Positions 13,697-63,830 of a stretch of 64,000 nt of DNA are shown here, one piece after another (position 1 is the first letter of the stretch; each line of letters begins with the position of its first letter). The notes under the pieces were generated by a model. That model searched no databases. It had not been told where the DNA came from and worked only from the letters and a program-made list of their open reading frames with translations. The DNA is from Chrysomallon squamiferum (lineage: Eukaryota > Animalia > Mollusca), in contig CM022668.1 in NCBI GenBank assembly GCA_012295275.1, forward strand, positions 3,782,001 through 3,846,000, written 5' to 3'. Both the position numbers and the translations under genes were made by a program.

Positions 13697-16600
13697 CTTT
13701 AAATACTAAATACTATTATCTCACAAACTGTATTTTAGAAGCTTTGGATAAAATTATTTTTCAATAAAAGTATCTTCAAGTAAAAATCACAGCTTTATGT
13801 GTATGTTATTTCTTTAGGTCAATTTTTATTAATTTTATTAAGTTTATTTTATTTATTTATTTATTTATTTATTTATTTTGAAACAGAAGCTGAATACTGG
13901 AAGACTTTGATTCAGAAATGCTGCCTGTTTATAGACAAATTTATTCTTGTTTTTTAACATGTCTATTATAATGTGATTTTTTTTTTTTTTTTTTTTAAAT
14001 ATTATGTTTACATCTGTGTTTACCTCGAATGTTAGTCTGTAGTTGTAACCAGACTGTCTGATCTTCACCGTGGCCAGCATCCCCGTGTACCTCAACTGTC
14101 GCAGAACAATTTCATCATCAAACACACAGGCAGCCTGAAACACAACACACAGAAGTTAAACAATTTCATCATCAAACACACGTGCAGCCTGAAACACAAT
14201 ACACAAAATTTAAACAATTTCATCATCAAACAAACACAAAGCTTGGAACACAATACACAAAATTTAAACAATTTCATCATCAAACAAACACAAAGCCTGG
14301 AACACAACACACAAATTTAAACAATTTTCAAAGTTTGTTTCTGGGCATAAAAATTACTCTGTATATCCTTTATCTTTGGTTAATATAACAATTCAAATTT
14401 GGTATTTTGGTACTTATTATAACATTTATATATTTAAATAATAATAAGAACAACAACAACAAAACATTAACTATAAAAATATTATTATTATTATTATTAT
14501 TATTATTCTCCATCTTTATTAATTTTGTGCTCAATACTACAGGCTAAAAAAAAAGTTAAAAAAAATAATAATAAAATGAAATAATAATAAAATGAGTTTT
14601 GTGTTCTGTTTATCAACACTAAAGTTGATTTCTACTCTTGTTATCACACAGGACTGAGATGAGAGTTTTGTGTTCTGTTTATCATCACTAAAGTTGATTT
14701 CTACTCTTGTTATCACACAGGACTGAGATGAGTTTTTTGTGTTCTGTTTATCATCACTAAAGTTGATTTCTACTCTTGTTATCACACAGGACTGAGATGA
14801 GAGTTTTGTGTTCTGTTTATCATCACTAAAGTTGATTTCTACTCTTGTTATCACACAGGACTGAGATGAGAGTTTTGTGTTCTGTTTATCATCACTAAAG
14901 TTGATTTCTACTCTTGTTATCACACAGGACTGAGATGAGAGTTTTGTGTTCTGTTTATCATCACTAAAGTTGATTTCTACTCTTGTTATCACACAGGACT
15001 GAGATGAGAGTTTTGTGTTCTGTTTATCATCACTAAAGTTGATTTCTATTCACTCTCTGTTATCACACAGGACTGAGATGAGAGTTTTGTGTTCTGTTTA
15101 TCATCACTAAAGTTGATTTCTACTCTGGTTATCACACAGGACTGAGATGAGAGTTTTGTGCTCACCTTATCAACATTTGACTTGATGCAGCGGATGAAGA
15201 ACGGGTTTGCTTGATTTAAAGCTGTCATCAGTCGAGACAAAGACCACTAAAACACAACAGTAAAATTTAAAATAAAAACTCAATGAATTAAAACATTTAA
15301 CATTATACTTGATCAAAATAACTTCAGATGTTTTTTTTAAAGTTTTTATTTATTACGCTGAAAACTACATCAAGCAAAATGGTCCACTATGCCTGGGGCA
15401 ACAACAACAAAAAATGTACTGTGGTTGCTAATGCACTAATGCAAGATAAAGATAGTTCAGTAAGTAGGTGTCACAGGGTAAAGTTATATTATCTCAAGGA
15501 GTGACTCAGAACACACTTATAAACATATATGATTTCAATCAATTCAGCTACAATTTCATTTCTATATTTTGTTTTACTTGTTGTATGAACAGATAAAACT
15601 GAAATTAGCTGCAGTTATTTCAAATTAAAACAGGCTGCTCTAAACAAAATGCAAAATAAATAGAAAATGAACTAAACAAGTAGTAAAGACATCATCTCAC
15701 CTGGAACTGGGCACCAACACTCGGTGACTGCTTTTTAGATCCGTGACGACTTCCTCCGACATTGAGCATTGTTCTATGAGCAATTGCTTTTAATGTCTTG
15801 ATATCCCTGAAACTCTGAGTGAAGATCAAAATAGTTCACAGTTATTTTATATACAACAGGTTACTTCATTCAAATCACTATACAACTCTTTTGATACAAC
15901 TGTTAAAACATAACTCTTTCAATTAGCACTACAATTCTAGTCACCACCTTGTTCCAAATACACAGTCATAATTATTAAACTCACACTGACAGTAAGTCAT
16001 ACAAGAAAATAAATTAAAAGTCATTTAATTCTATTGGTCATATGATAATAAATGTTACAGTTATAAATTTCATATATTTATTTCTATTTAAGTAAGCACA
16101 TACCAGGGAAGGTCGAGGTCGTGGTTTGAAAGACTTGTTTTTTCTGAAACATCAAACATAAACATTTTATAACAACCAAAGCACATTAATATAAATATCT
16201 TTCTCTTTATTTAATTTTTACTTGTTAAATTTGATAAATAGGTAAGTTATTTAACTCAAATTATGAAAACAGTATTAAACACATTTTTGTATCTTCAAGA
16301 CATTCAAGTTTGCTAACTTTAATTAAATCACACACACACACACACAAAAAAAACCACAGTTACATCACAGACAAACAAATTCATACAGTTACAAAAATAT
16401 TATACACATACAGAGAGACATATCAAACATACAGGTGAATAGACATAAAAATGTATCCTTTTATTTTAAGACATATTCCATTCTTATGTAAAGAACACAT
16501 AAAAATACACAAAAACAAAAATCAGAAATACATTATCTCAGTTAAGCAAACAGTTAAAAAAGCTAGTAAACTAGTGACAATATTAATTTTGAAATAAACA

Positions 16601-19688: not shown

Positions 19689-22600
19689 CAATAAACATCA
19701 TATGATGATGATGATGATGATGATTATGATAATGATGATGATGATGATAATGATAATGATAATACCTGAGCAGGTTGTCAGTGTAAACAACATCTTGTAA
19801 CTGGGAATCTGAAAGTCGTTTCAGGTGAGCAGGTTTGTTCTCAGAACCTACATACAGAAAGACAGAAGTAAGTTTCCATGACAACAACATGTCTGGCAAA
19901 ACTATTAATTGAATAGAATTCTTATATTTAAATTTTAAAATAATGCAATGAAATTTAGTAATGATAATAGCCATGGATAAATGAATTCAAATGAAGAGAG
20001 TTCTCTTCTGTGTTAATAAATGTATTTTAAAATGTTTGTGTATGTATGGGTGTTATGTTTCTGGATGGGGTTAGGTCTGCTGTCTATAATTATTTTTTAA
20101 TTACATCTGCAAAGCTTCATGTTTTACCTCCATGTTTTCTGTAATTTTTACCAGCACCAATGAAAGCAAAGAAACACCGGAAAAATGCTCTAACAACAGA
20201 CCAGCGTAGAACTGCCACGGGATCAATTCCTGAAAGAGAAAACTTTTAACATCAACAGTCACATTACTAGTCAATCATCAAACAATATATACAAGAGAAA
20301 AATTCACTTAAGAAACATTAATTTTCCATATATTACATTTTCCATTAGAGGGATTGTTTACACAGATCTTCTCTTAGAAAGGAAAGAAAACAGATTTTCA
20401 TAAACAGTCAAATTTGGTATAAAGGTAAACAATTCTTGAACAGGGGGACTAATACTGTCTGTTCAGTTTTGTTTTGGACAATCACGCACTAAATGTACAC
20501 TGAATGAGAGAAAAATGTGTGACATTATTATAGATAAATAATATAAAACACTGAAGTCTCACCTACAAGTTCTCTGACAAAAGAAAAATTACTTTTCTTC
20601 AAAACACCAACAATGTCAGATCTGATCAGGTCAGAATTCTTCTCTCGGAAATCCTTATATTAAACAAAAGTATTTATACATTTAATGCTAAATTATGTAA
20701 ATCAAATTTCAGTTCCATATGTCCTCTAGAGTTAATATTGTCTACAGTGTTCAAAAATTTTAGTGTTATGTATGTATGTATGTATGTATGTATGTATGTA
20801 TGTATGTACGTACATATGTATGTAATGTAATGTATGTATGTAATGTATGTAATGTATGTATGCATGTATGCATGTCATGTTCTCTATATGTATATATAAA
20901 AATGGTTGTGCATGTCTGTCTGTAGCTATACACAGACAGACTCCAAACACCTCTGTTTATTGTAATATTTGGAATCTGTGTCCACTGGTGTTATTTAACA
21001 ACTACATCTAAAAGTAGGTGATTTTTAATGCACTATGTGTAATTTTTATAATGTGACCATCTACATGCGTAATATGCAACAATTTTTGTTGTTATCTCTG
21101 TGATATTTGACTGAAGTTACTTTGATGTGATGTTTGACTGTATTTGGCACCTGTATTTACTTTGATGTGATATTTGACTATATTTACCTTGATGTCATAT
21201 TCGACTGTATTTAACTCCTACATTTACCTGATGTGATATTTGACTGTATTTACCTTGATGTGTTGTTTGACTGTATTTAACACCTGTATTTACCTTTTGA
21301 TGTGATATTTGTATTTACTGTGTATGTGATATTTGACTGTATTATCACCTGTATTTACCGTGATGAATATATTTGTGATGAATATATTTACCGTGATGTG
21401 ATATTTGACTGTATTTACCTTGATGTGATATTTAACTGTATTTACCTTGATGTGATATTTGACTGTATTTACCCTGATGTGACATTTGACTGTATTTACC
21501 TTGATGTGACATTTGACTGCATTTACCTTGATGTGATATTTGACTGTATTTACCTTGATGTGACATTTGACTGTATTTACTGTGATGTGACATTTGACTG
21601 TATTTACTGTGATGTGATATTTGACTGTATTTACCTTGATGTGATATTTGACTGGACCAGCATAGTGCAGGATTACGAAGGACTCTTCTTTTCGTTGTGG
21701 TACTTCATAATATGGATTACTTTTGTGATGCTGAGTGAACTTCGTCAGCATCGTCTCATTAGTTGCTCCAGGAAAACTGATCAGTGAAAACAACAGCATT
21801 AGTTAAAGAACAAAAAATCTTAAAGCCTTAACTTTTTGTTTAATGAGAGGACTGTTATTTTCTGTTATATATTTTTAAATTTAAATAAAAGTATGGAAGA
21901 CTGAACATTTTTATTTTTTATTGTTATCATAAGGATAACAATGATGATGATGATGATGATGATTATTTGACAAACTATAGTAAATGTTTATGAGACCAAA
22001 AAGAAATCATATGAAGAAATACAGACATCAAATAAAAATATTTTTTTATGTTTTTGCTATTATGGTCAAGTAACTATGTCAAACCAACAAACAAGGACAT
22101 ACTGAAAACAAAACACAAAGTTTATAACATGATGACAAAAAAAGAAATGTATATTATTTATAAACATTTACTTACTTGCATTCCTCATCCAGCAGAGCAA
22201 ACAAACCATTTGCTCTTTTAGAAAACAATTCCAGGCAGCCTGTGTTATCTATAAACTCAATATTTTTCCACTGTATACCTTCTCTTTGATATTCTTCCTA
22301 CACAGAGACAAATAGTTTTATATACAAATTTAATATTTTTCCATTGTATACATTCTTTATATTAAATAAATAAATAAATAATAATGATGATGATGATGAT
22401 GATAGTGACAATAACAATAACAAAACATAAATAAATAAACACAACTGTTAAGCTTTATGCCTGGATTTATAAGTAATTAGAAGAAAGGAATCAGTAGTAG
22501 TTTTAAATGGTAGACAACTCTTAGCTATTTCTTTGTAGAGGTAAAAGTAATCAGAAAGATTTCTACCAGCTACTTACACTAATCTTATTCATTCCCTAAT

Positions 22601-41500: not shown

Positions 41501-42904
41501 GACATCAGCTGACACAAACCTGCTAGAGTAAACAAGATGAGTTTTATAATATATAAATAATTACAAAGATACCAACCTGGGTATACTGGACACTGAATAA
41601 TAAAGAAAACCTATCTCTTTAAAATTGAAATAGTAAGAAAATAGATAATTACTATATCCTGGACAACATACACACAACATAACACACACAGAACACAAAC
41701 ATAAGATTCACAAAAAATGCAGACAATATATATATGTTGTGTGCATTTTAATATATATATATATGTTGTCTGCATTTTTTGTGAATCTTATGTTTGTGTT
41801 CTGTGTGTGTTATGTTGTGTGTATGTTGTCCAGGATATAGTAATTATCTATTTTCTTACTATTTATAGATGTTACAGAATTGTCTACACACTCAAAACAC
41901 TCATGATAATATGTTAAATATAAATATGTATATAAACATTTAGCATATTATCATGAGTGTTTTGAGTGTATAGACAATTCTGTAACATCTATATATTCAA
42001 ACAAACACTATTTAAAAACTGAACTCACCTCAAGGACAGGTCCAGCACCTAGAATAGTCTGCTCCACTCCACTCCCATGTAAACCTTTGTGGCTCAGTGC
42101 TGTCAGATGATGTAGTAACAAATTAGTACTTTCTGTTTTTCCCGATCCTGACTCTCCTGATATGACAATGCACTGGTTCTGTTTGGTACGCAACATAGTG
42201 TAATATGCTGCATCTGCTATTGCAAATATGTGAGGAGGCAATTCCCCCAACCTTTTGTTCTGGTACATTTTAACATATTTTGGGTTGTAAATAGGGAAAA
42301 ACTTGAACGGATTTACAGCAATTAATATAGAACCAACGTATGTGTAGATATTGGAATTGGAAAATCGAGATTGGAGATTTTCTAAGAGAGTTTTCTCATT
42401 CAGATCTGGCAAATTACATAGATCAGGGTATTCCTTGCTTCCAATTGGCTGTTTAAGAAATGACATCAAAAAAGTATCCACCACACTGGCATCTTTACAT
42501 TCCACCCACCCCAACGAACGGGTTGCATCAGGATCTTTCTTACGGATATAAAACCTGTATCCTGTCAACAGACCTTGACCTGTGTCAATTTCAGCATTGA
42601 TGACCTTTGGCCAGAGAAGCTGAACTCTGACAGGGTTCTCCATAGGTTCAAGTCTTCGTTCCTTACAAAGCTGTCCTCCAGAAGAAAATACTTCAGCAAT
42701 CTCAAAGCTATCAGGAGGACCTAGTTTGAGCTTCCTCACTGCAGTCCTCACAATCTCTATGGCAGGTGAGGTTTTCTCGGCCTCAACTGAAATGAACTCA
42801 CTCTCCTGACTGAGGGGGCCTGTGTAGATTCGAACCATGTATGACTCCATGCTCCCTCGATCAACGAGTTCGACCCTTTTCGGCAGCAGCTCATATTGTG
42901 CCAT
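370..42904 (-). CDS. MYO9: Unconventional myosin class IX (Myo9a/b-like), multi-exon, 3'-truncated by window edge
   Basis: Phase-consistent GT-AG exons (5'->3'): 42904-42029, 34534-34440, 33602-33540, 32345-32246, 31484-31384, 31039-30985, 29538-29464, 29226-29137, 28819-28706, 23792-23658, 22297-22176, 21776-21635, 20653-20563, 20229-20128, 19847-19766, 17691-17476, 16143-16104, 15814-15701, 15246-15166, 14134-14024, 13584-13462, 11740-11591, 11237-11059, 10568-10395, 10013-9852, 9661-9616, 7084-6983, 5145-4944, 2783-2700, 2308-2022, 1623-1504, 1308-1078, 866-761, 443-370. Motifs: P-loop GESGSGKT, switch [17 protein letters not shown], switch [26 protein letters not shown] motifs, C1 domain. 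An N-terminal RA domain and the [10 protein letters not shown] loop-2 insert are class IX hallmarks. Confidence 0.96.
4416..4490 (-). CDS. Candidate 75-nt cassette exon in myosin tail ([24 protein letters not shown])
   Basis: aag|AT...CGA A|gtaagt, phase 1-1 matching flanks, CpG-containing coding-like composition. Confidence 0.55.
7087..7380. repeat. ~113-bp triplication starting at a myosin acceptor
   Basis: gacatgttag...caagtttaa...gcaactgtcttac...tacttactcac at 7087, 7201, 7311. Confidence 0.85.
8287..8719 (+). pseudogene. Frameshifted remnant resembling an OTU-like cysteine protease domain, likely transposon-derived, antisense in a myosin intron
   Basis: Overlapping short ORFs in three frames; ...[10 protein letters not shown]... 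and terminal [16 protein letters not shown] resemble the OTU W-x-x-x-x-E and His-loop (lxHxxgnHy/f) motifs. Recognised by eye only. Confidence 0.4.
11059..15246 (-). CDS. MYO9: Myosin IX end of motor, converter and IQ-motif neck exons
   Basis: [24 protein letters not shown]; [18 protein letters not shown]; YQIGINK/LFLRESE; IQ-like motifs [41 protein letters not shown]. Confidence 0.93.
11714..13055. repeat. 67-bp tandem repeat (~20 copies) spanning a myosin 3' splice site
   Basis: Unit atcttctcactctctcgtaaaaacagctgacaaaacatcacattctcatttaaaacatgaaccaaat; period 67 (cagctg at 11738, 11805). Confidence 0.95.
14106..14327. repeat. 54-bp tandem repeat (~4 copies) spanning a myosin 3' splice site
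   Basis: aacaatttcatcatcaaacacac...gcctgaaacacaa repeated; the first copy overlaps exon 14134-14024. Confidence 0.9.
14594..15160. repeat. 69-bp minisatellite (~8 copies) abutting a myosin donor site
   Basis: gagagttttgtgttctgtttatcatcactaaagttgatttctactcttgttatcacacaggactgagat, nearly identical copies. Confidence 0.95.
15701..20229 (-). CDS. MYO9: Myosin IX class-specific loop-2 insertion exons
   Basis: Starts [17 protein letters not shown], ends [13 protein letters not shown] / [11 protein letters not shown]...[12 protein letters not shown]. Established: class IX myosins carry a large calmodulin/actin-binding insert here. Confidence 0.88.
18465..18509 (-). CDS. Candidate 45-nt cassette exon in loop-2 insert ([14 protein letters not shown])
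   Basis: aag|A TTT...ATT CA|gtaagt, phase 2-2 matching both flanking exons. Confidence 0.4.
20563..23792 (-). CDS. MYO9: Myosin IX motor exons (switch II, relay helix, HYAG)
   Basis: [43 protein letters not shown]; [10 protein letters not shown]...LLDEECN; [10 protein letters not shown]...HYAGPVKY; [15 protein letters not shown]. Confidence 0.95.
21095..21654. repeat. 27-bp tandem repeat spanning a myosin 5' splice site
   Basis: tatttaccttgatgtgatatttgactg units, degenerating away from the exon. Confidence 0.93.
26688..26789 (-). CDS. Candidate 102-nt cassette exon of myosin IX (VDAQEVTHL...QPFAL)
   Basis: ttcag|GTT...TTG|gtagga, phase 0-0, GC-rich island in an AT-rich intron, stop-free. 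Confidence 0.6.
26812..27085. repeat. ~31-bp degenerate minisatellite
   Basis: caggataatgatcatatgtctatgttta-type units immediately upstream of the acceptor of exon 26789-26688. Confidence 0.85.
28105..28146 (-). CDS. Candidate 42-nt cassette exon of myosin IX ([14 protein letters not shown])
   Basis: tag|TTG...TCG|gtaagt, phase 0-0, stop-free, in the intron before the switch II exon. Confidence 0.5.
28706..34534 (-). CDS. MYO9: Myosin IX motor exons 2-9 (switch I to HO helix)
   Basis: [22 protein letters not shown]; [21 protein letters not shown]; [11 protein letters not shown]; [16 protein letters not shown]; [17 protein letters not shown]. Eight exons with matching phases. Confidence 0.95.
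33369..33520. repeat. (AG)n plus (AAT)n compound microsatellite
   Basis: Directly visible. Similar (CA)n, (AG)n, (TAT)n, (TAGA)n and (TATG)n tracts occur at ~7380, 16810, 20770, 23543, 24770, 51150 and 53385. Confidence 0.95.
35275..35372. repeat. 32-bp tandem repeat x3
   Basis: tatctcagacttcagtaatactaaagtacaga. Confidence 0.85.
37865..38323 (-). mobile_element. Tigger/pogo (TIGD1-like) DNA transposon relic: TIR plus truncated transposase HTH
   Basis: TIR-like AGTGGTGCCTTGACTTACGA at ~37866. Minus strand 38323-38126 translates [40 protein letters not shown]...[20 protein letters not shown], a CENP-B-type N-terminal HTH with stops. Confidence 0.85.
39186..39415. repeat. ~41-bp degenerate tandem repeat
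   Basis: agagataattacattactaaca...aatgctgtaaa repeated about 5-6 times. Confidence 0.8.
41628..41993. repeat. Two adjacent long inverted repeats (hairpins)
   Basis: Arms 41628-41726 / 41766-41864 (99 bp, apparently perfect) and ~41864-41914 / ~41938-41993 (near perfect). Confidence 0.93.
42029..42904 (-). CDS. MYO9: Myosin IX first coding exon: Ras-association (RA) extension plus motor N-terminus and P-loop
   Basis: MAQYELL...[19 protein letters not shown]...[17 protein letters not shown]...[16 protein letters not shown]...GESGSGKT...GAGPVLE, then donor GTGAGT. The exon's acceptor is at 43039-43041 and 42905-43038 is 5'UTR. Confidence 0.97.
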
Positions 42905-44122
42905 TGTTCAGAGTAACCAGACTGGGAAAAATGGACAAAACTGCTCCATAGTGTTGAGTTACAGTATCCATCGTTTCATTTCATAGCTCAGTGTAACACA
43001 TATCCAGCAGTTGACGCCAACATATATAAAAAGAAAACCTGAAATAAAAAAGAGAAAGTTTAACATGTATTCTTATTAAGCACTGATTTAGTGATTTTTT
43101 GCTGTAAAGCTTGCTAGGAGGTCTCAATATTTATATAAATAATTTACAGAAATGTCTCATGTTTATATAAATAATTAATAACAATAGAACAAAATAAATT
43201 ACAAAAATCAAACAATTAAACAACTTCTCCACAAATTCTATTAAGAGACTTTTTTGGCATTCGACAAATAAAAACAATTTTTGTTAATGAATTTTATATT
43301 TTTCTATAATTATTTTCTATATCATTCCAAACTCAAAGTCCAGGGAATAATATTAATTTATATAATGGACCATTAATTAATACTTTCATAATTCATTAGT
43401 GGGTTTTTTCAAAAGTGTTACATTCCAATCATTAACAATGTTTTTCTCACTATATTTTTAAAACATGATTACATGTACATATGAATCAACAACAGACTGA
43501 TAACACCTAATTGTTTCTTAAATTATGTGACTGTTAGGTGTAAAACACAGTTATTTTTATACTGATTATGTAAGAAAAGAGTAACAACTGCTGCTACTAC
43601 TCCATATTTTGCTATTACTGGTCAGCAGTAAGATGTATTTTACAAACTATATGATTTTTTTCATTGATAAAAACACATCGTTCATTAATATTGGATACTG
43701 TTGTAACATTAATAACATTAATTACAACTTTCTGTATCACTTCTTCATTTGTGCAGTACAAATGTCTGGATTCTACCATAGTTTGACCTTTTTTCTTTAA
43801 ATAGTGATAAAACTTCAGCAGTAAAGAGATTATGTGTGCATTTTAGCACAAAAAGAGTTTATTGGTATTATTATCATAAAATTCATTATTATCGTCTTCA
43901 TCATCATCATCTTCATCATCACCATCCTCACTATGTTTAATTGGTAATATTAAAATATAAATTCTGTTTTAATTCAACAAAAAATGAAAAATGGAAAGAG
44001 GAAGTAAGAAAATGTTTTATTTTATTTTGTTATTGTTTAGTTTGATGAATGGTGTGAAATAAAAAACCATGATGAAAACAGGAAGTTGTACCAGTCGTAG
44101 TTCACTGTGTAATGTAACTGTG

Positions 44123-51216: not shown

Positions 51217-52127
51217 CATGCATACATATACATATATACATACATACATACATACACATATATACGTACATACAGATACATAAAAAACATCCTGTGAGTA
51301 ATAGGTTTTAGAATGTGTTTTTAATTACCCTATAGTTACTATTAAAAATAAATGATACTCTGTCAAAACAGACAAACAACTATATCACTGATTCATCTAG
51401 GTTTATTTTACTCCTTACATATCAACTTCCTTTTTCGGCTAACCCTGTAGGCTGTTTTATTTGAACTTTACTGGTTATTTAACAGAAAAAAGGCAATTTA
51501 ATTAATAATGTATTCTAAAATCCTAAATACCAGAGGCAAGATAAGTATTCCTTCAACATCATTATTTTGTTTTATATTATTATGTTTGTTTAGTTGCTCT
51601 TTATTTTATATTTATATTTTGTGGGAGGGGGTCAGAAAAGAAATACAAACAAATTTATTTTTGCTGTGGATATTCATATTGCAGTTTATTGAAATATATA
51701 TATTATAAATCAATTTTTTTAATTAAAAAATTAATCATTATAATTGTTATTATTTTTGGACAAATTAATACATTACAATTCATTACTAATGATAAACAGA
51801 GTAAGACAGGGTAAGAACCTATCAATATGATCGTTCTGTTTAAGTCTGTGACCACTGAAGCGGAAGCCTGCTGTTGAAAGAGGAAGGGAGTAACTTAACA
51901 TACGAGTGTTGCATTTGGTTTGAAATCGACACCAAGTCACAGTTGAGTCTAGTATCTCTAGTTTGTTTACCTCCGTATAGATCTTTAAACGAAACGTGTG
52001 ACGTTGCCAATTATTAGCACTGTAAATTAGTCCACTAAATGTGCAAACCTTCAGTCAGACATAAAAAGTCTAGCAGCAAGCAGTTAACATAAAACTAAAT
52101 TAGTAAATACTTAAAATTGCTACTCAC

Positions 52128-52400
52128 AAATCGTCAAATGTATCTACTTACATCAATACATGTCACGGCTATCTCCAACTTTATGTAAATTCCGACTCAG
52201 CTCGGTCTATTATTCAACTAGGAACACATCCTACGTGTTTTTTCGATCTTTAGTTGCCATGCAAGATAAATCCGTATGTATGTCACAAACAGAAAAACTA
52301 CACCCTACATGTAACACACTGCCTTCCTGACTTCCCAACACAAAATTAATTACTCAATATTTTCAGTCCCGCAGAGACAACGAACCGCAAAGCCGATTGG
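52128..52400 (-). promoter_or_regulatory. Probable non-coding first exon and promoter of myosin IX; divergent promoter region with ANAPC11
   Basis: Local CpG enrichment (51830-52420), minus-strand donor GTGAGTA ending at 52127, CCAAT box on minus strand at 52396-52400. ANAPC11 ATG is ~650 bp away on the opposite strand with a CCAAT at 53004. Confidence 0.55.
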
Positions 52401-53041
52401 TCAATATTAGCAAACCGTGAAAAATTAATATATTCATGTTTAATTATGAATAATTTTCTTCCAAATGTATATTTATTTAATTATAATTTTAACAGTTTAT
52501 CTTGTCGACAATCCCAGAGTATATAATTATTAAAAATAATCTTAAGAATATTTTGGAAACAATTATTATTTTAACTTCATATTAGCAGATATATAATAAT
52601 ATTTTAATATTTAAATATTTTATCATAAACAAAATCTACAATTGTGAATGCAATACTGCGAACTTCATCTTTCAGCTGACAAAATTACAAAATCAGTTAG
52701 TGTTACATATATACTTAAGTTACGCTGTGTTGTACTTGTAGATAACATTTTCCCAAAAATAAAAATTATTAACAACATAGGCCTACGTTACTAAGAAAAA
52801 TATATCATCCATTCAGTGAACTTTGCCTAGTATCAGTTTTAATTAATTATTCAAACTGCAGCTTTCAAAATTGATGTTAACTCTATTTTGTAAAGCATTT
52901 TATTTTATTTTATTTTATTTTATATCTATCTCCACGGGATAATTCTAATTGTTGGTGCTCTAAAGAAATTAGTGGAGATCAAATTATTATGGTGATGCGC
53001 TAACCAATGGTTTCAGACCAGTCAACGCTTAAGAACTAAAT

Positions 53042-53381
53042 ATGAAAGTAAAAATTAAAAGTATGCTATATTTTCTTAAAATCATGGTTAACTAAGTTGT
53101 TATTTGATTAGGTTTATTAATTGTGTTGTTTTGAATGTTGAGCTGAGAATAAGAAAAATCATATTTTCATTACCTAAACTCAAGCAGTAAAGGCGAGAGT
53201 AACCCATGTTACGCATGTAACGTATGTTCAGAATTTACTTTATTTAACCAGACTTTTGTAATATCAGTCAATCTTTTATTCGACTATCATATGAATACTT
53301 TCTTGTTGAGCCACTAAACAGACATAAAATAGACAAGCAGAATATCTGATTTCTCTCTGTATGGTTAACTTTGTTGTTGTG

Positions 53382-53424
<43 letters not shown>

Positions 53425-54890
53425 TATTATTATTATTATTATTATTATATGATATAATTTTTAACTTAAGGATTAAAGCAGTAAAGTAAAATGTTCACCA
53501 GTGATAACAGCTATTTATATAAACTGTATGTATATTAAACTATTATGTTGAAAAATAATAAATATGAAAATGAAATAAACTACAATGCAGACTAAAGTCT
53601 GTGTATATGCTTTAAATTAATAAATGACCATTAATGATTACTAACTAAAAGAATGACTAATTAACACAGAGATAATTTGGCTTTCCAATATGAAATACTT
53701 CAGTATCATAATTAACTCTGATGATGGGGAATCAAAATGTTAGAGAATAATAAATTTAAACTAAACATTTCCTTCTCCTTTTTCTTTCATATTGCTGATT
53801 ACATCAACATACAAAAAGGGTAAGTCGTCATTACTAATACATTCAAGAAAAATGTTTACAATACTTTATTAATAAAACATAAAAATAATTTTAAATACAA
53901 AATGAAAGTAAATTATACATATGTACACATACTCACAATTTTGATCATAAACATTAAAGTGGTGATAGCCATTTAAATTACAAATAGCTACATTGATTGC
54001 ATGTAGAGGTACTCTCATTTCTAATAAGGTAAAATGCAAAAAAAACACAAAAAAACAACAAAAAACAACATGGCAACACTTTAAAATTATTTCAAGATGT
54101 AGCTGTTTTTTCCATTATTTAAAGATTGTTTTAATACTGATGGAACTGATCTTTATAGGTTGTAGTTGTTCCAGACCAAGAGATATTTTAAAATGTAAGA
54201 TTATTTCAAAAAAATCGTTTTACTCTTGTGAAGGTTTTTTGTTGTTTTGTTCATTTGTTGTTATCCAGTAGATTAAATTCAACCATCTTGAGCTACTGTA
54301 GAGATATAAACATAATTTTAACTTGATTATTTTCTAATACAGTTTTAAGTTGTTGTTGTTGTAGCTGGACTGCTGTAGCTACATGGAGGTGGCTTGCTAA
54401 TGATGAAAACTGTGGAATATGTAGAATGGCTTTTGATGGTTGTTGTCCTGATTGCAAGCTGCCAGGAGATGACTGCCCACTAGGTGACTGAACAAAACCT
54501 GTTAACACAGCTTATATCATTAGTTAACATCACATCTGATTGTGCTAAACCTCTGATATAAATTGTATAGCCATATTGTGTTTTACATATTTAAAGATGA
54601 TTGTATTATTTGTTTCTGGACATACATCTGTTATGATAAAATGATTTTTATATTTAATATATTTAATAAATAAAAATAAATAAAAGAGCTCAACAACTTA
54701 TTTTATAATTAAATAATAAATAAACAAGGAAATAAAGTAAAAAAAATAAAAATAATTTTTTTTTATTTTTACAGTATGGGGTCAGTGTTCTCACTGTTTT
54801 CACATTCACTGCATTGTGAAATGGCTGAACTTACAACAAGTACAACAACTCTGTCCCATGTGTAGACAAGAATGGAAGTTCAAGGAATGA
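53042..54890 (+). CDS. ANAPC11: Anaphase-promoting complex subunit 11 (RING-H2), 84 aa
   Basis: Exons 53042-53060, 53819 (1 nt, inferred), 54365-54483, 54775-54890 = 255 nt. Protein [84 protein letters not shown], near-identical to known APC11. Confidence 0.97.
53819..53819 (+). CDS. ANAPC11: Putative single-nucleotide exon (G) of ANAPC11
   Basis: ctaaac branch-like motif (53761), pyrimidine tract 53769-53789, ~70-nt AG-free zone, then aag|G|gtaagt. Supplies the middle base of codon 7 (A|G|C = Ser) needed to join phase-1 exon 1 to phase-2 exon 3. Confidence 0.8.
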
Positions 54891-55606
54891 AATATATATA
54901 TTAGTGACGCACATCACACGACTCACTCCATATCTTGTTGTGTAAAAATACTACATATTTCAAACTAGTCATTGATACAAAAGACAGTGACTGAATTTTT
55001 TATAATGTGTACATCTGATGATTTTAGAAATATTTTACTGAGATCATCATTGAAAACAGTTAAATATTAATCTGATAATAATAATTTTCTTTCTGAACAA
55101 AAATGCAGATCATTTGACAGTTTACTGTGTATGATTTACAAAATTCAAAATAAATTTTTTTTTGATTGTATGCTGGTTTCATTTTTATCTGTAGTTTATG
55201 AAATATTTCACACTATATTTTTAGGTGTTTATTTCTCAGTAACTAGCAGGTCAAATTCAATTTACTTGAGCTTATATTTTAATTTTCAGAATAAATGAGT
55301 TAAGTGCATTTTCTTTAAGATAAATCATGTATCCTTTATCGGCACATCACAATATGCCTAAGAATTATTTTCTACAGCATGAAATGAAATTAATAAGCAT
55401 TCACAAAAATGTTATCTAACTTACTTTCTTGTTCAGGTGTAAATATGTTTAATTTTACATTATTTCAATGAATTTATTATTTTTATTAAATATTTTCATT
55501 TTACTTCTTGAAAAATTGTCCTCCATTAAGAACATATATTTTTATGATTTCAGTTATAGGACAAATGTGACAACACTTTTTCAATTATAAACACTAAATC
55601 ATAAAA

Positions 55607-56214: not shown

Positions 56215-58536
56215 TCATTCTTGGAGTATTATATTCATGAACGAACAAATTTCTCCAAGTTTTTGTAAGTTTTCATGTGAAACAACATTGGCTGCCTAAA
56301 ATTAAAATAAAATAGAAAAATTACTGAAAGGAAATTGATTATTTTAAAGAGGTTTTTTTTTTTTGGCATAGATACTAAATATATCAGTAGCAGTGTTGAA
56401 GAAACCTCCATAATATTACCACTTACTATTAGATTAAATGTGTATATTTTTATACATATATATATATATATATATATATTCTTATATGTTGCATTTCATG
56501 CACTTTTTAATTCAGAGTACTTTTTTGTAATGTTTGATATGAAGAAACAATTTACCTCTTCTGAAAGGTAACATTCTTGCAAAAGTTCATTCTTTGTCGC
56601 CTCAAGAATTTTCCGTCTTGGAAGCAAGGCTTCCTTTAACTGTTTGTTCTTGTCTACCATTTCTTTCAGAATTCTCTCAAGACTAGCTTTCTCTTTCTGC
56701 TTTACTGAATACAGGTGAGGCAGTACATCTTTTGATGGCTCTCCTGAAGGTCTCCTGAAATAAAACGTAATATATAAATATATTAAAATAGGTATATTTA
56801 TATATGTTCACAGCTAGGAATGTTGTAAAACTATAAAAGATTCAGACTGAAATGTTATAAGTAGTAATCCTGCTTAAGTTTCACATTCATAAGTCTAAAT
56901 TTAAAAAAAAAAGATATATATGAATAAATAAAATTACAGACTAAAAATAATGTTTTAAAAAAAATAACTTCAAAATTTATATGCAGTTTTAAAGATGTCT
57001 TGATTAAAGGGAAAATACATATTCATACGATCTTTAGTTTTATTTCATTTAGATTTTTTTTTTTATTATTATTATTCTTACCATGCTTCAACTGCATGAT
57101 CCAAATTCGATTCCTGAATAATTTTATCTAAATTGTTCATCAGTGAAATAATATTTTCTTCTTCGAACATTGATTTTATTTCTTCCTGAAATTAAAAAAA
57201 TAACAGTATTAGTTATTACTAAAATAAAATTTTAAAGTAATTAAAAACCATCTGCTGCTTCAGATTTACTTAATGCAATTTGATTTAAAAAATAAAAAAT
57301 AAACATTTAGGCAGTGGACTCATAATAAATATTTTAAAATTTAAACATATCAGTCACAATTCAGTGGTATTGTTAATTTCGATTCTTGTATAAAATATAA
57401 AATATAAAATAATTAAAAAGGTTAGTTCACACACATAAAACTTAAGTTTGTGACAAACATTACTGTTTTATCAGTAGGATGATTGTACAAGCAAACTAAA
57501 CACTGATTAAATTTTTGTTTTTCTTAAAATCAATACTAAGTTGAAATCAAGAGATTCATAAAATTTGTACTTTTACAAGTCCTAGATTATACAGTGAATT
57601 TAAAAAATTAAAAATTAATTATTTCTTTCAGTTAAGTTATATTTTTGTATTGTATAGATAAAAAAAAAAAAAAAAAACATACATCAATATTTGACTTCAG
57701 CTGCGTTTCCATTTGTTTATGAATTTGCTTCAGAATATCTGGACCACTTCTTGCTATTGGTAAAAGAATCTTTTCAAACCGGGAATAACTAAAAGGAAAA
57801 AAAGAATTGTATTAATCAAACTGTATTATGTTTCTACTATTCTCAAACCAACTGATCAATATTAATAATGTTAAAAATTAGTTTATTAGATATATATATA
57901 TGACTATTATGAGAAATACCAATAAATTTTGTTTACACTTTCTGACCAAAATGTGAATCATAATTCAGTTTCTCTCCAAGAGACTTTTGACTTAAGACGG
58001 GTAAGTTAAGTATTTGCCGAAATTTGCCTTTTCGCAATGATACCTCACTTGATAGTAAATAAATATGTGATGTTTTGGTTGTCACAAAATCATTTACAAA
58101 GATGAAAGAGTGGGCTACATAAAGTAGCATATGATGTTAATATTATTATAAGTAGTAAGTACATCCGTCATATTAAATGATATTTGAATACAGCTATCAC
58201 TGTTATACTGGCGCTACTTAAAGTTTTAATGAAATGTAATTATAATAACGGAATTTATGCTTGCTTTCAACCCCAAACAAGGTTTGTATAAGTAATACAA
58301 TTAATAACGATGTAGCGTATGTTGAAATTCAGTCGATTCAATGTTGCTCAACGTCTTGATATAAATAATTATTAAACTAGGCTATGATTGACATTAATAT
58401 TTTATAGAACCCAAACATTTTACCTAACTGCAGACAGACATTTTTTAATTGAAGTTTGAATTCCATATTTAAGTAATTGGATACGTCTTCCTCCTGTTGT
58501 GTGTGTTTCTGTTGACTTTCTTTCGCTAGCCTCCAT
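56215..58536 (-). CDS. PMF1: Polyamine-modulated factor 1 / Nnf1 (Mis12 kinetochore complex subunit), 200 aa
   Basis: Exons 58536-58424, 57788-57683, 57185-57082, 56754-56556, 56295-56215 (603 nt, phases match). RIQLLK...SYSRFEK...QLKSNIDEEIKSMFEEENIISLMNNLDKIIQE...AWRPSGEP matches the Nnf1-family pattern (human RVKLL...SYQRF...EEISDIKEEGNLEAVLNALDKIVEE...AWRPSGIP). Confidence 0.9.
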
Positions 58537-62489: not shown

Positions 62490-63830
62490 ACCAGTGCTGT
62501 AAATTTAAACAGTTCCAAAATATAACTGATCATTTCTGGTCATTCTCATCCTAGCTTACTCAGTTTAACATAACAAAAACATCTTGCCATTTGCCATGTT
62601 CAAATTGTCTGTCTTTTCGTAATTTAAGTAAATTTTCCCACTTTCCAGCTTCCAATTCAAATGTGGTCTGCATTGGAAGTTGATATATAAAATACTCCTC
62701 AGGTACAGAGCAACCAAGTACTTCTCCCATGGTAAACCTATCTAAAGACTGGGTGGATATAATTTCATCAGTGATTTTATCCTTAACATTATCCTCTACT
62801 GCTACATTACTATACACTGTGACTGAGCTAAGTTTTTCTATATGTTTGGACATACTACATCACCTTCCCCAGGGTTGCCATAATAATTAAGCTCTACTGT
62901 TTCTTTACTACAGTATTTCTTGCCATCTTTCTGTTTAACATCATCAACTGCATCTGAGGTGCTACAATTACCCTTTTATCTTCATCACAGCAAACATTTA
63001 CTTTCTTTTCATTACTGTATCTATACACCAAATACGTTTTCCACTGGCCTTCCCTCAGAAGTACTTTTTCTCTTCTGATTTGTTGTTTACAATATTTTCA
63101 TTAACTGAGAATAAATTATCTGTCACACATTTATTTTTCCTTGTACAAGAAAACGGATTGGACAAAAATGACTTACCTTTAATGTTGTATATCATTTTAT
63201 CTCCTCATCTCTTGTTGCTTCATGGAAGCATGGAATTATTAAACACCTGAAGTGGTACCAAACTAAACACTTTTCACACTGAATCACTGCACTTTTTACT
63301 CATACCATGGCTTCTTGCAAACACAATTTTCTTCAGTGCTTCTGACCATCCTTTTGACATCAGACATACAGGTATCTTTCAACATGCTGCTAAAAACAAA
63401 GTGTTTGACATTTCCTCTGTTATGTGACCATATAATATGCAACCTTTTTCTATTTTTTTGGTTATTCTGTCAACCAAGACTTTCTGCAACCATTACCATA
63501 AGGACCACTTGGTTTAAGATTCCATTCATTTTCTGTTGTGCATTTACCTCTTAAATACTTACCTATAATATTGTAGTCATGACCAGAATTATTTTCATTT
63601 TTACTTACTTCATGGTAGCTACAAATGCCACAAACATTACCCTGATTTTCCATCCAAATTACATGAAGTTTCTTTCTATTATTCAGATTATTTGCATCTT
63701 CAAACTTATTGGATAATTTGAGGAAAAAATTTAATCTGTATTTATTTTATGTGGATCAAAATAATACTTTCCTTATTTCTTCCATAAAATATAATCTTAG
63801 CTTGTAAATAAACAGTATTTACTCCCAGGT
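62490..63830 (-). pseudogene. Decayed ORF remnant with broken PHD finger and CxxC motifs, probably transposon-derived
   Basis: 63328-63240 gives CVCKKPWYE*(frameshift)AVIQCEKCLVWYHFRCL (PHD C4-H-C pattern). Also VCGICS at ~63630 and a 97-aa coding-like ORF at 62853-62560. Many stops. Confidence 0.5.

Follow-up and report, generated by a model that had tools for sequence, protein, structure and literature searches.

A probable one-nucleotide exon in the APC11 gene of the snail Chrysomallon squamiferum and its counterparts in corals and plants

The mature APC11 mRNA of the snail Chrysomallon squamiferum carries a single G between exon 1 and exon 3, as read at the junctions of two sequencing runs (X6 and X7), and this G restores the reading frame of the message. 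The most probable source of the G is a constitutive one-base exon at position 53819 of the window, meaning the whole 64,000-nucleotide stretch of DNA analysed here, and the exon was likely inherited together with both flanking introns from the plant-animal ancestor. The snail exon is a real feature, the range and age of which are surprising.

Structure of the APC11 gene in the window

The predicted APC11 product consists of 84 amino acids encoded by 255 nt of joined coding sequence, stop codon and one-base G included, and it agrees with bivalve APC11 models at 77 of 84 residues (Table 1). APC11 is a RING-H2 protein, and Pfam PF12861 is found on its homologs. The first-pass annotation of this DNA predicted a protein with Ser7 and the length of human APC11, which is confirmed by the joined reading frame and by the human APC11 chains in the PDB, which are likewise 84 amino acids long. 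With the G, the coding exon lengths are 19, 1, 119 and 116 nt. The coding part of exon 1 breaks off in codon 7, phase 1, at the donor GTATGC, and the long exon that follows begins in phase 2, a mismatch that was claimed at the outset and the coordinates of which hold; direct joining of the two leads to a stop after 10 amino acids.

Table 1. Features of the APC11 locus in the window
Feature	Position	Strand	Details
APC11 exon 1	52997..53060	+	5' UTR from 52997 (X6 contig 52997-53059); coding 53042-53060
APC11 intron 1	53061..53818	+	758 nt, GT-AG, donor GTATGCTA; probable U2 type
Alternative donor GTATGT	53222..53227	+	one X9 contig; stop after 17 aa if the message starts at exon 1
AG-free zone	53746..53816	+	71 nt; pyrimidine tract about 53768-53790, ending TTCAT
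One-nucleotide exon G	53819	+	most likely the middle base of codon 7 (A-G-C, Ser)
APC11 intron 2	53820..54364	+	545 nt, donor GTAAGT, phase 2
APC11 exon 3	54365..54483	+	119 nt, beginning with C TGG; first half of the RING-H2 domain; spliced contigs X6-X9 and homologs
APC11 intron 3	54484..54774	+	291 nt, codon 47 phase 1; removed in X6-X9
APC11 exon 4	54775..55108	+	coding 116 nt (54775-54890), TGA at 54888-90; 3' UTR seen to 55108

The 1304-nt interval between exon 1 and position 54365 contains only two AG-N-GT sites, at 53198 and 53819. The second consists of an AG at 53817-18 and a GTAAGT at 53820-25 around the G, and it follows an AG-free zone that had been put at about 70 nt and measures 71 nt. 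A site counted as strong if it fitted AG-N-GT[AG]AG or GT-A[TG]G and had no AG over a length of at least 30 nt; such a site arises in 28 of 500 dinucleotide shuffles of the snail interval. Judged by its sequence, the snail site is suggestive, being modestly beyond chance and no proof, and it is the RNA and comparative data that carry the claim.

Candidates for the putative branch point of snail intron 1 are the 'ctaaac' at 53761-66, the A at 53789 in TTCAT and the A at 53798 in CTGAT. The first of these, described as branch-like in the first-pass annotation, is placed as far off as CTAAT is in corals; it does not match YTNAY and is retained as a candidate branch site only. A pyrimidine tract that ends in TTCAT about 30 nt upstream is common to the snail, a bivalve-like locus (L001) and corals, and TTCAT is also present at -30 to -32 in L001 and in two stony-coral-like loci (L023 and L027).

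Several other ways of repairing the frame were rejected. The 53198 site has an AG-free zone of 3 nt and has lost its AG in run X5 through a G>A change at 53197, and the mRNA base is G and not the A that this site, raised earlier as a possible source, would supply. A GC donor at 53065 and 24 open segments of length 3n+1 (AG to GT) within the interval are excluded by the X6 and X7 junction. Another strong AG-N-GT site with a long AG-free zone, at 51800, lies outside the gene and was taken as chance.

As for the surroundings of the locus, a myosin IX gene (RA domain, motor) occupies 42008-42907 on the minus strand, with upstream exons to about 1000, and is divergent from APC11. It is 80% identical to Pomacea, and one of its exons shares 78-81% identity with gastropod proteins, as against 71-78% with those of bivalves and cephalopods, which marks the animal as most likely a gastropod. 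Tandem repeat arrays at 14036-15049 and 21281-21802 lie in myosin IX introns and yield long open frames. An expressed exon at 52150-52372 is joined in all four spliced runs to sequence beyond the examined stretch; it may represent the 5' exon of myosin IX, the divergent gene, and lies about 630 nt away from the 5' end of APC11. Downstream of APC11, open frames on the opposite strand (56496-56807 and 62560-62859, both minus) resemble exons of another gene.

Transcript evidence in the snail

Contigs were examined from six (X1 and X5-X9) of 11 listed public runs, all of them assembled contigs and not raw reads. X1 and X5 gave unspliced contigs that are gapless over 52931-53367, including exon 1 and its donor, and the contigs of X6-X9 are spliced at intron 3. 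For X6 and X7 the library is not on record; they were guessed to be 'DNA?', yet they are spliced.

The exon 1-G-exon 3 junction, for which a search of RNA data had been advised, was read in both X6 and X7. In the X6 contig (514 nt, depth 33.7), positions 52997-53059 are joined to 54363, a skip of 1303 nt as against 1304 nt for a plain GT-AG intron, and the same junction is present in X7 (depth 54.5) as a loose end. Another loose end from X7 fits the G form, and it agrees neither with the window nor with the skipped form or the A form. In addition, an X9 contig joins 53221 to G and 54365 (depth 4.74, with 29 letters on the short side), and the X8 contig ends two letters before the exon and is uninformative on the junction. 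The extra G is found in three of the four spliced runs (X6, X7 and X9), and neither an A at the junction nor use of the acceptor at 54341-42 was seen in any of the four (X6-X9).

The snail junctions align equally well when the cut is moved by one or two places, and the contigs cannot name the source of the G, because both donors begin with G and the acceptor ends with it. The G of the snail mRNA would correspond to genomic base 53819. No splicing intermediate across 53819 is present among the snail contigs. An X6 piece of depth 2.6 that covers 53813-54174 was weighed as a possible upstream-first intermediate and rejected: such an intermediate predicts three mismatches at its start and two other letters were reported. 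The piece holds two variants known from X5 and fits unspliced RNA or DNA better.

APC11 loci of other animals and plants

A scan of metagenome contigs found 154 related stretches, of which 80 were kept. The phase-2 acceptor before Trp8 is present in 38 of these loci, 19 are apparently phase 1, 21 are continuous (intronless genes or transcripts) and two are unclear. Among the 38 phase-2 loci, 23 have a 19-nt exon 1 with a phase-1 donor in the available DNA, and the 15 without exon 1 were left out. Exactly one strong AG-N-GT site was found in 22 of the 23 out-of-phase plant and animal loci, a count to be read with the site pattern having been chosen after the loci were seen and with many of the loci being near-duplicates or close kin. 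In the 23rd, the homologous site carries a weaker donor, and one of the 15 left-out loci (L003) has a strong G site. In the controls, a strong site occurs in 0 of 14 third introns, in 0 of 15 reverse complements and in 3-39 of 500 shuffles per locus.

The animal loci number six, from about five lineages, and their AG-N-GT sites, in mollusc-like and coral-like APC11 genes alike, bear out the expectation that the feature would be present in other animals. The single base is G in the bivalve-like L001 and the mollusc-like L004, and it is A in the stony-coral-like L023, L026 and L027 and in L020, which is animal-like but unplaced as to lineage. The true phase-1 loci (n = 17, with exon 1 visible in 16) have the upstream intron only, and those that were compared are nearest to insect and mite proteins; arthropod-like loci would likely have lost the downstream intron. 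The continuous loci have neither of the two codon-7 introns. Furthermore, the position of intron 3 (codon 47, phase 1, after the CPL motif) is common to plant and invertebrate loci.

Public APC11 protein models break at codon 7 in corals, Nematostella, bivalves, gastropods, echinoderms and many plants. The suspicion that animal annotations miss the exon is thereby substantiated, as many invertebrate models have wrong N-termini at this codon, and some are correct at 84 amino acids. The models of Acropora digitifera and Glandiceps have 85 amino acids with one extra residue at codon 7, which would fit a gene predictor that moves the donor by 4 nt. In six models from coral, anemone, oyster and scallop (P0271, P0044, P0045, P0278, P0265 and P0437), the N-termini resemble what retained intron 1 together with the one-base exon would give on translation. 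Only for the RefSeq Orbicella protein P0271 was this checked against DNA, which confirmed that it starts with the translated retained intron 1.

Splicing intermediates in corals

Two of the 19 apparent phase-1 loci, L021 and L022, are splicing products of stony-coral-like genes. L022 equals L027 and L026 up to the single A and then lacks exactly the 533-nt intron that begins with GTGAGT and ends with CAG, with introns 1 and 3 kept. L021 lacks the matching 360-nt GTGAGT...AG intron of L023 and keeps intron 1, and intron 3 and more introns downstream are spliced out of it. As an explanation, precise genomic loss of an intron could hold for L022 but fails for L021. In an animal, the donor that follows the single A is in use, and the downstream intron can be removed first. 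Since the base in corals is A and not the G of a splice site, slippage of a donor or acceptor is not the source of the extra coral base. A coral mRNA that contains the A and is fully spliced did not turn up, and a search of protein clusters for the protein of such a coral message found none. A comparison of L021 with L023 also indicates that the coral contig continues past the APC11 3' end into more spliced exons, possibly of an overlapping neighbour gene.

The coral data point to ordinary splicing in which the downstream intron is removed first. Of the earlier proposal of sequential or recursive-like splicing, the sequential part agrees with the coral intermediates, but 'recursive-like' is inexact, as the base is kept in the mRNA. 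A moss APC11 isoform with the upstream intron retained, as in corals, is reported in the available portions of Yu et al. (2022, PMC8831610).

The plant counterpart

The claim that the snail base lies at the codon of the one-nucleotide exon reported in Arabidopsis is upheld by the plant locus L059, in which codon and phase are the same. In L059, exon 1 is 19 nt long and the interval of 422 nt has its A at position 333, as in the published Arabidopsis layout, with flanks that equal the mutagenesis primers given in the accessible parts of Guo and Liu (2015, PMC4674806); this A is the middle base of codon 7 (C-A-A), at the same place as the snail G. According to the same parts of that article, mutating the base in Arabidopsis APC11 changed the cDNA.

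The one-base exons of land plants and the snail are alike in their gene, in the 19-nt first coding exon, in the middle position within codon 7, in the third intron position, in the long AG-free zone and in being usually absent from annotation. A further probable likeness concerns splicing order, as the upstream introns of plant microexons, that of APC11 included, tend to be the last ones spliced out (Yu et al., 2022, PMC8831610, available portions). The differences are that the snail exon has an animal host and is G (Ser) whereas that of land plants is A (Gln), and that snail intron 1 lacks the U12-type donor and branch site of the plant loci.

This last difference was assessed in nine plant loci (L037, L047, L057, L059, L066, L068, L070, L074 and L080) against the U12 donor and branch consensus. 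Intron 1 starts with GTATCCTT, an exact match to the U12 donor, in eight of the nine and with GTATCCAA in the ninth, and seven of the nine have a U12 branch match with no more than one mismatch at -40 to -49 from the one-nucleotide exon. Distances of 40-49 nt are longer than usual for U12 introns, and for this reason plant APC11 intron 1 is likely, not proven, to be of U12 type. The snail donor GTATGCTA has two mismatches to the U12 consensus and no matching U12 branch site accompanies it, and the intron 1 donors of the other animal loci have four mismatches, so the animal donors are U2-like and snail intron 1 is probably of U2 type. The closeness of the snail donor to the U12 consensus may be a relic or chance. 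A search of the open-access literature on APC11, ANAPC11 or AT3G05870 found no report of a U12-type intron, and the term 'U12' is absent from the main text of Yu et al. (PMC8831610).

A model for the splicing and descent of the exon

In the snail, the strong GTAAGT donor behind the G would be spliced first to the acceptor at 54364, which would fuse the G to the 119-nt exon and turn it into the 5' end of a 120-nt exon. Intron 1 would then be spliced out in the ordinary way, through a distal branch point and with its pyrimidine tract kept free of AG. This order is proposed for the snail on the model of the coral intermediates. Common descent of the snail and plant one-base exons would account for their shared position, and it needs a conversion of intron type, because intron 1 is U12-like in plants and U2-like in animals. 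By a slight balance of probability, the codon-7 exon has existed since the plant-animal ancestor with a downstream U2 intron that was originally spliced fast and an upstream U12 intron that was spliced slowly after it, plants preserved this arrangement, and cnidarians and molluscs converted the upstream intron to U2 while keeping the exon and the order. If such an ancient hand-over between two spliceosomes is true, the upstream intron, when retained, could represent a rate-limiting step of ancient origin that acts on the catalytic subunit of the APC/C.

Alternative explanations

The first-pass annotation also suggested a frameshift/NMD switch. In such a regulated scheme, skipping of the exon or use of the donor at 53222 would send the message to NMD and tune APC/C activity: the stops would fall after 10 and 17 codons, respectively, both well upstream of later junctions, one X9 contig indeed uses donor 53222, and forms that retain the upstream intron exist in corals. 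However, the skipped form appears in none of the four spliced runs (X6-X9), where contigs drop rare variants, donor 53222 is destroyed by a G>A change in run X5, the retained forms are explained as splicing intermediates, and the plant exon is reported to be constitutive in the accessible parts of the Arabidopsis study (PMC4674806). Regulation of this kind is unlikely, and the suggestion of a switch is not sustained.

Also quite doubtful is a reading that accepts the one-nucleotide exon as real but has its two codon-7 introns gained independently in plants and animals. The apparent type of intron 1 differs between the two, none of the 80 loci could be identified as a protist or algal locus with this layout, and Yu et al. 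(PMC8831610) state, in the available portions, that the APC11 one-nucleotide exon evolved in early plants. Three intron positions nevertheless coincide exactly (codon 7 phase 1, codon 7 phase 2 and codon 47 phase 1). Conversion from U12 to U2 type is known as a one-way change, which also speaks against separate gains.

An arrangement with no microexon at all, in which a single non-canonical intron is excised with an offset of one base (donor +1 or acceptor -1) and leaves a splice-site G, is very improbable. The shiftable alignment of the snail junctions and the presence of the extra G behind both donors, that of exon 1 and that at 53222, are in its favour, but it needs TA..AG or GT..TA ends, and a unique strong AG-N-GT site is present in relatives whose layout is out of phase in the same way. 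Moreover, the base is A in corals and plants, the coral donor behind the A is used, and mutation of the Arabidopsis base altered the cDNA (PMC4674806, accessible parts). There is next to no chance that an assembly error or an in-frame acceptor at 54341-42 makes the microexon unnecessary, both of which had been raised at the outset given the run of A that ends exon 1 and the seven residues that the upstream acceptor would add in frame, as the X1 and X5 contigs match the window without gaps, the spliced contigs contain neither an additional A nor the insert, and the X6 and X7 junctions contradict both. A constitutive one-base exon at 53819 is the best explanation of the snail G.

Relation to known one-base exons and significance

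Other one-nucleotide exons between spliceosomal introns are described in the available portions of the respective articles for Fusarium CYP621A (PMC12940212) and plant VPS55 (PMC8831610). Like the snail exon, they are needed for the frame and have transcript support, but their genes are unrelated to APC11 and each is known within one kingdom. A one-base exon of placozoan mitochondria, demonstrated by splicing intermediates, is also found in an animal (PMC5436844, available portions), but it is flanked by group I introns and not by spliceosomal ones, unlike the snail exon. A search of the open-access literature, with subscription journals not covered, found no report of a nuclear one-base exon in animals or of an APC11 case outside plants.

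Animal neural microexons follow a 3n rule, as stated in the available portions of Yu et al. (PMC8831610). The snail exon, by comparison with a regulated neural microexon, has a length of 1 and not a multiple of three, skipping it breaks the frame, no skipping is seen, and the APC11 exon is present outside bilaterians. It likewise differs from a recursive (zero-length) splice site in having one base between AG and GT that is kept in the mRNA. Neural microexons and recursive sites resemble it in being a tiny unit with a strong donor, a distant branch point and stepwise removal of the introns.

To conclude, the animal spliceosome most likely handles a one-nucleotide exon in an essential gene, and the presence of the same codon-7 base in molluscs and corals likely moves the origin of the exon back to near the root of eukaryotes. 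The series of losses, from loci with both introns through those with the upstream one only to those with none, represents a clean natural test of microexon retention and loss, and the snail or coral APC11 locus is suited to minigene tests of splicing order.
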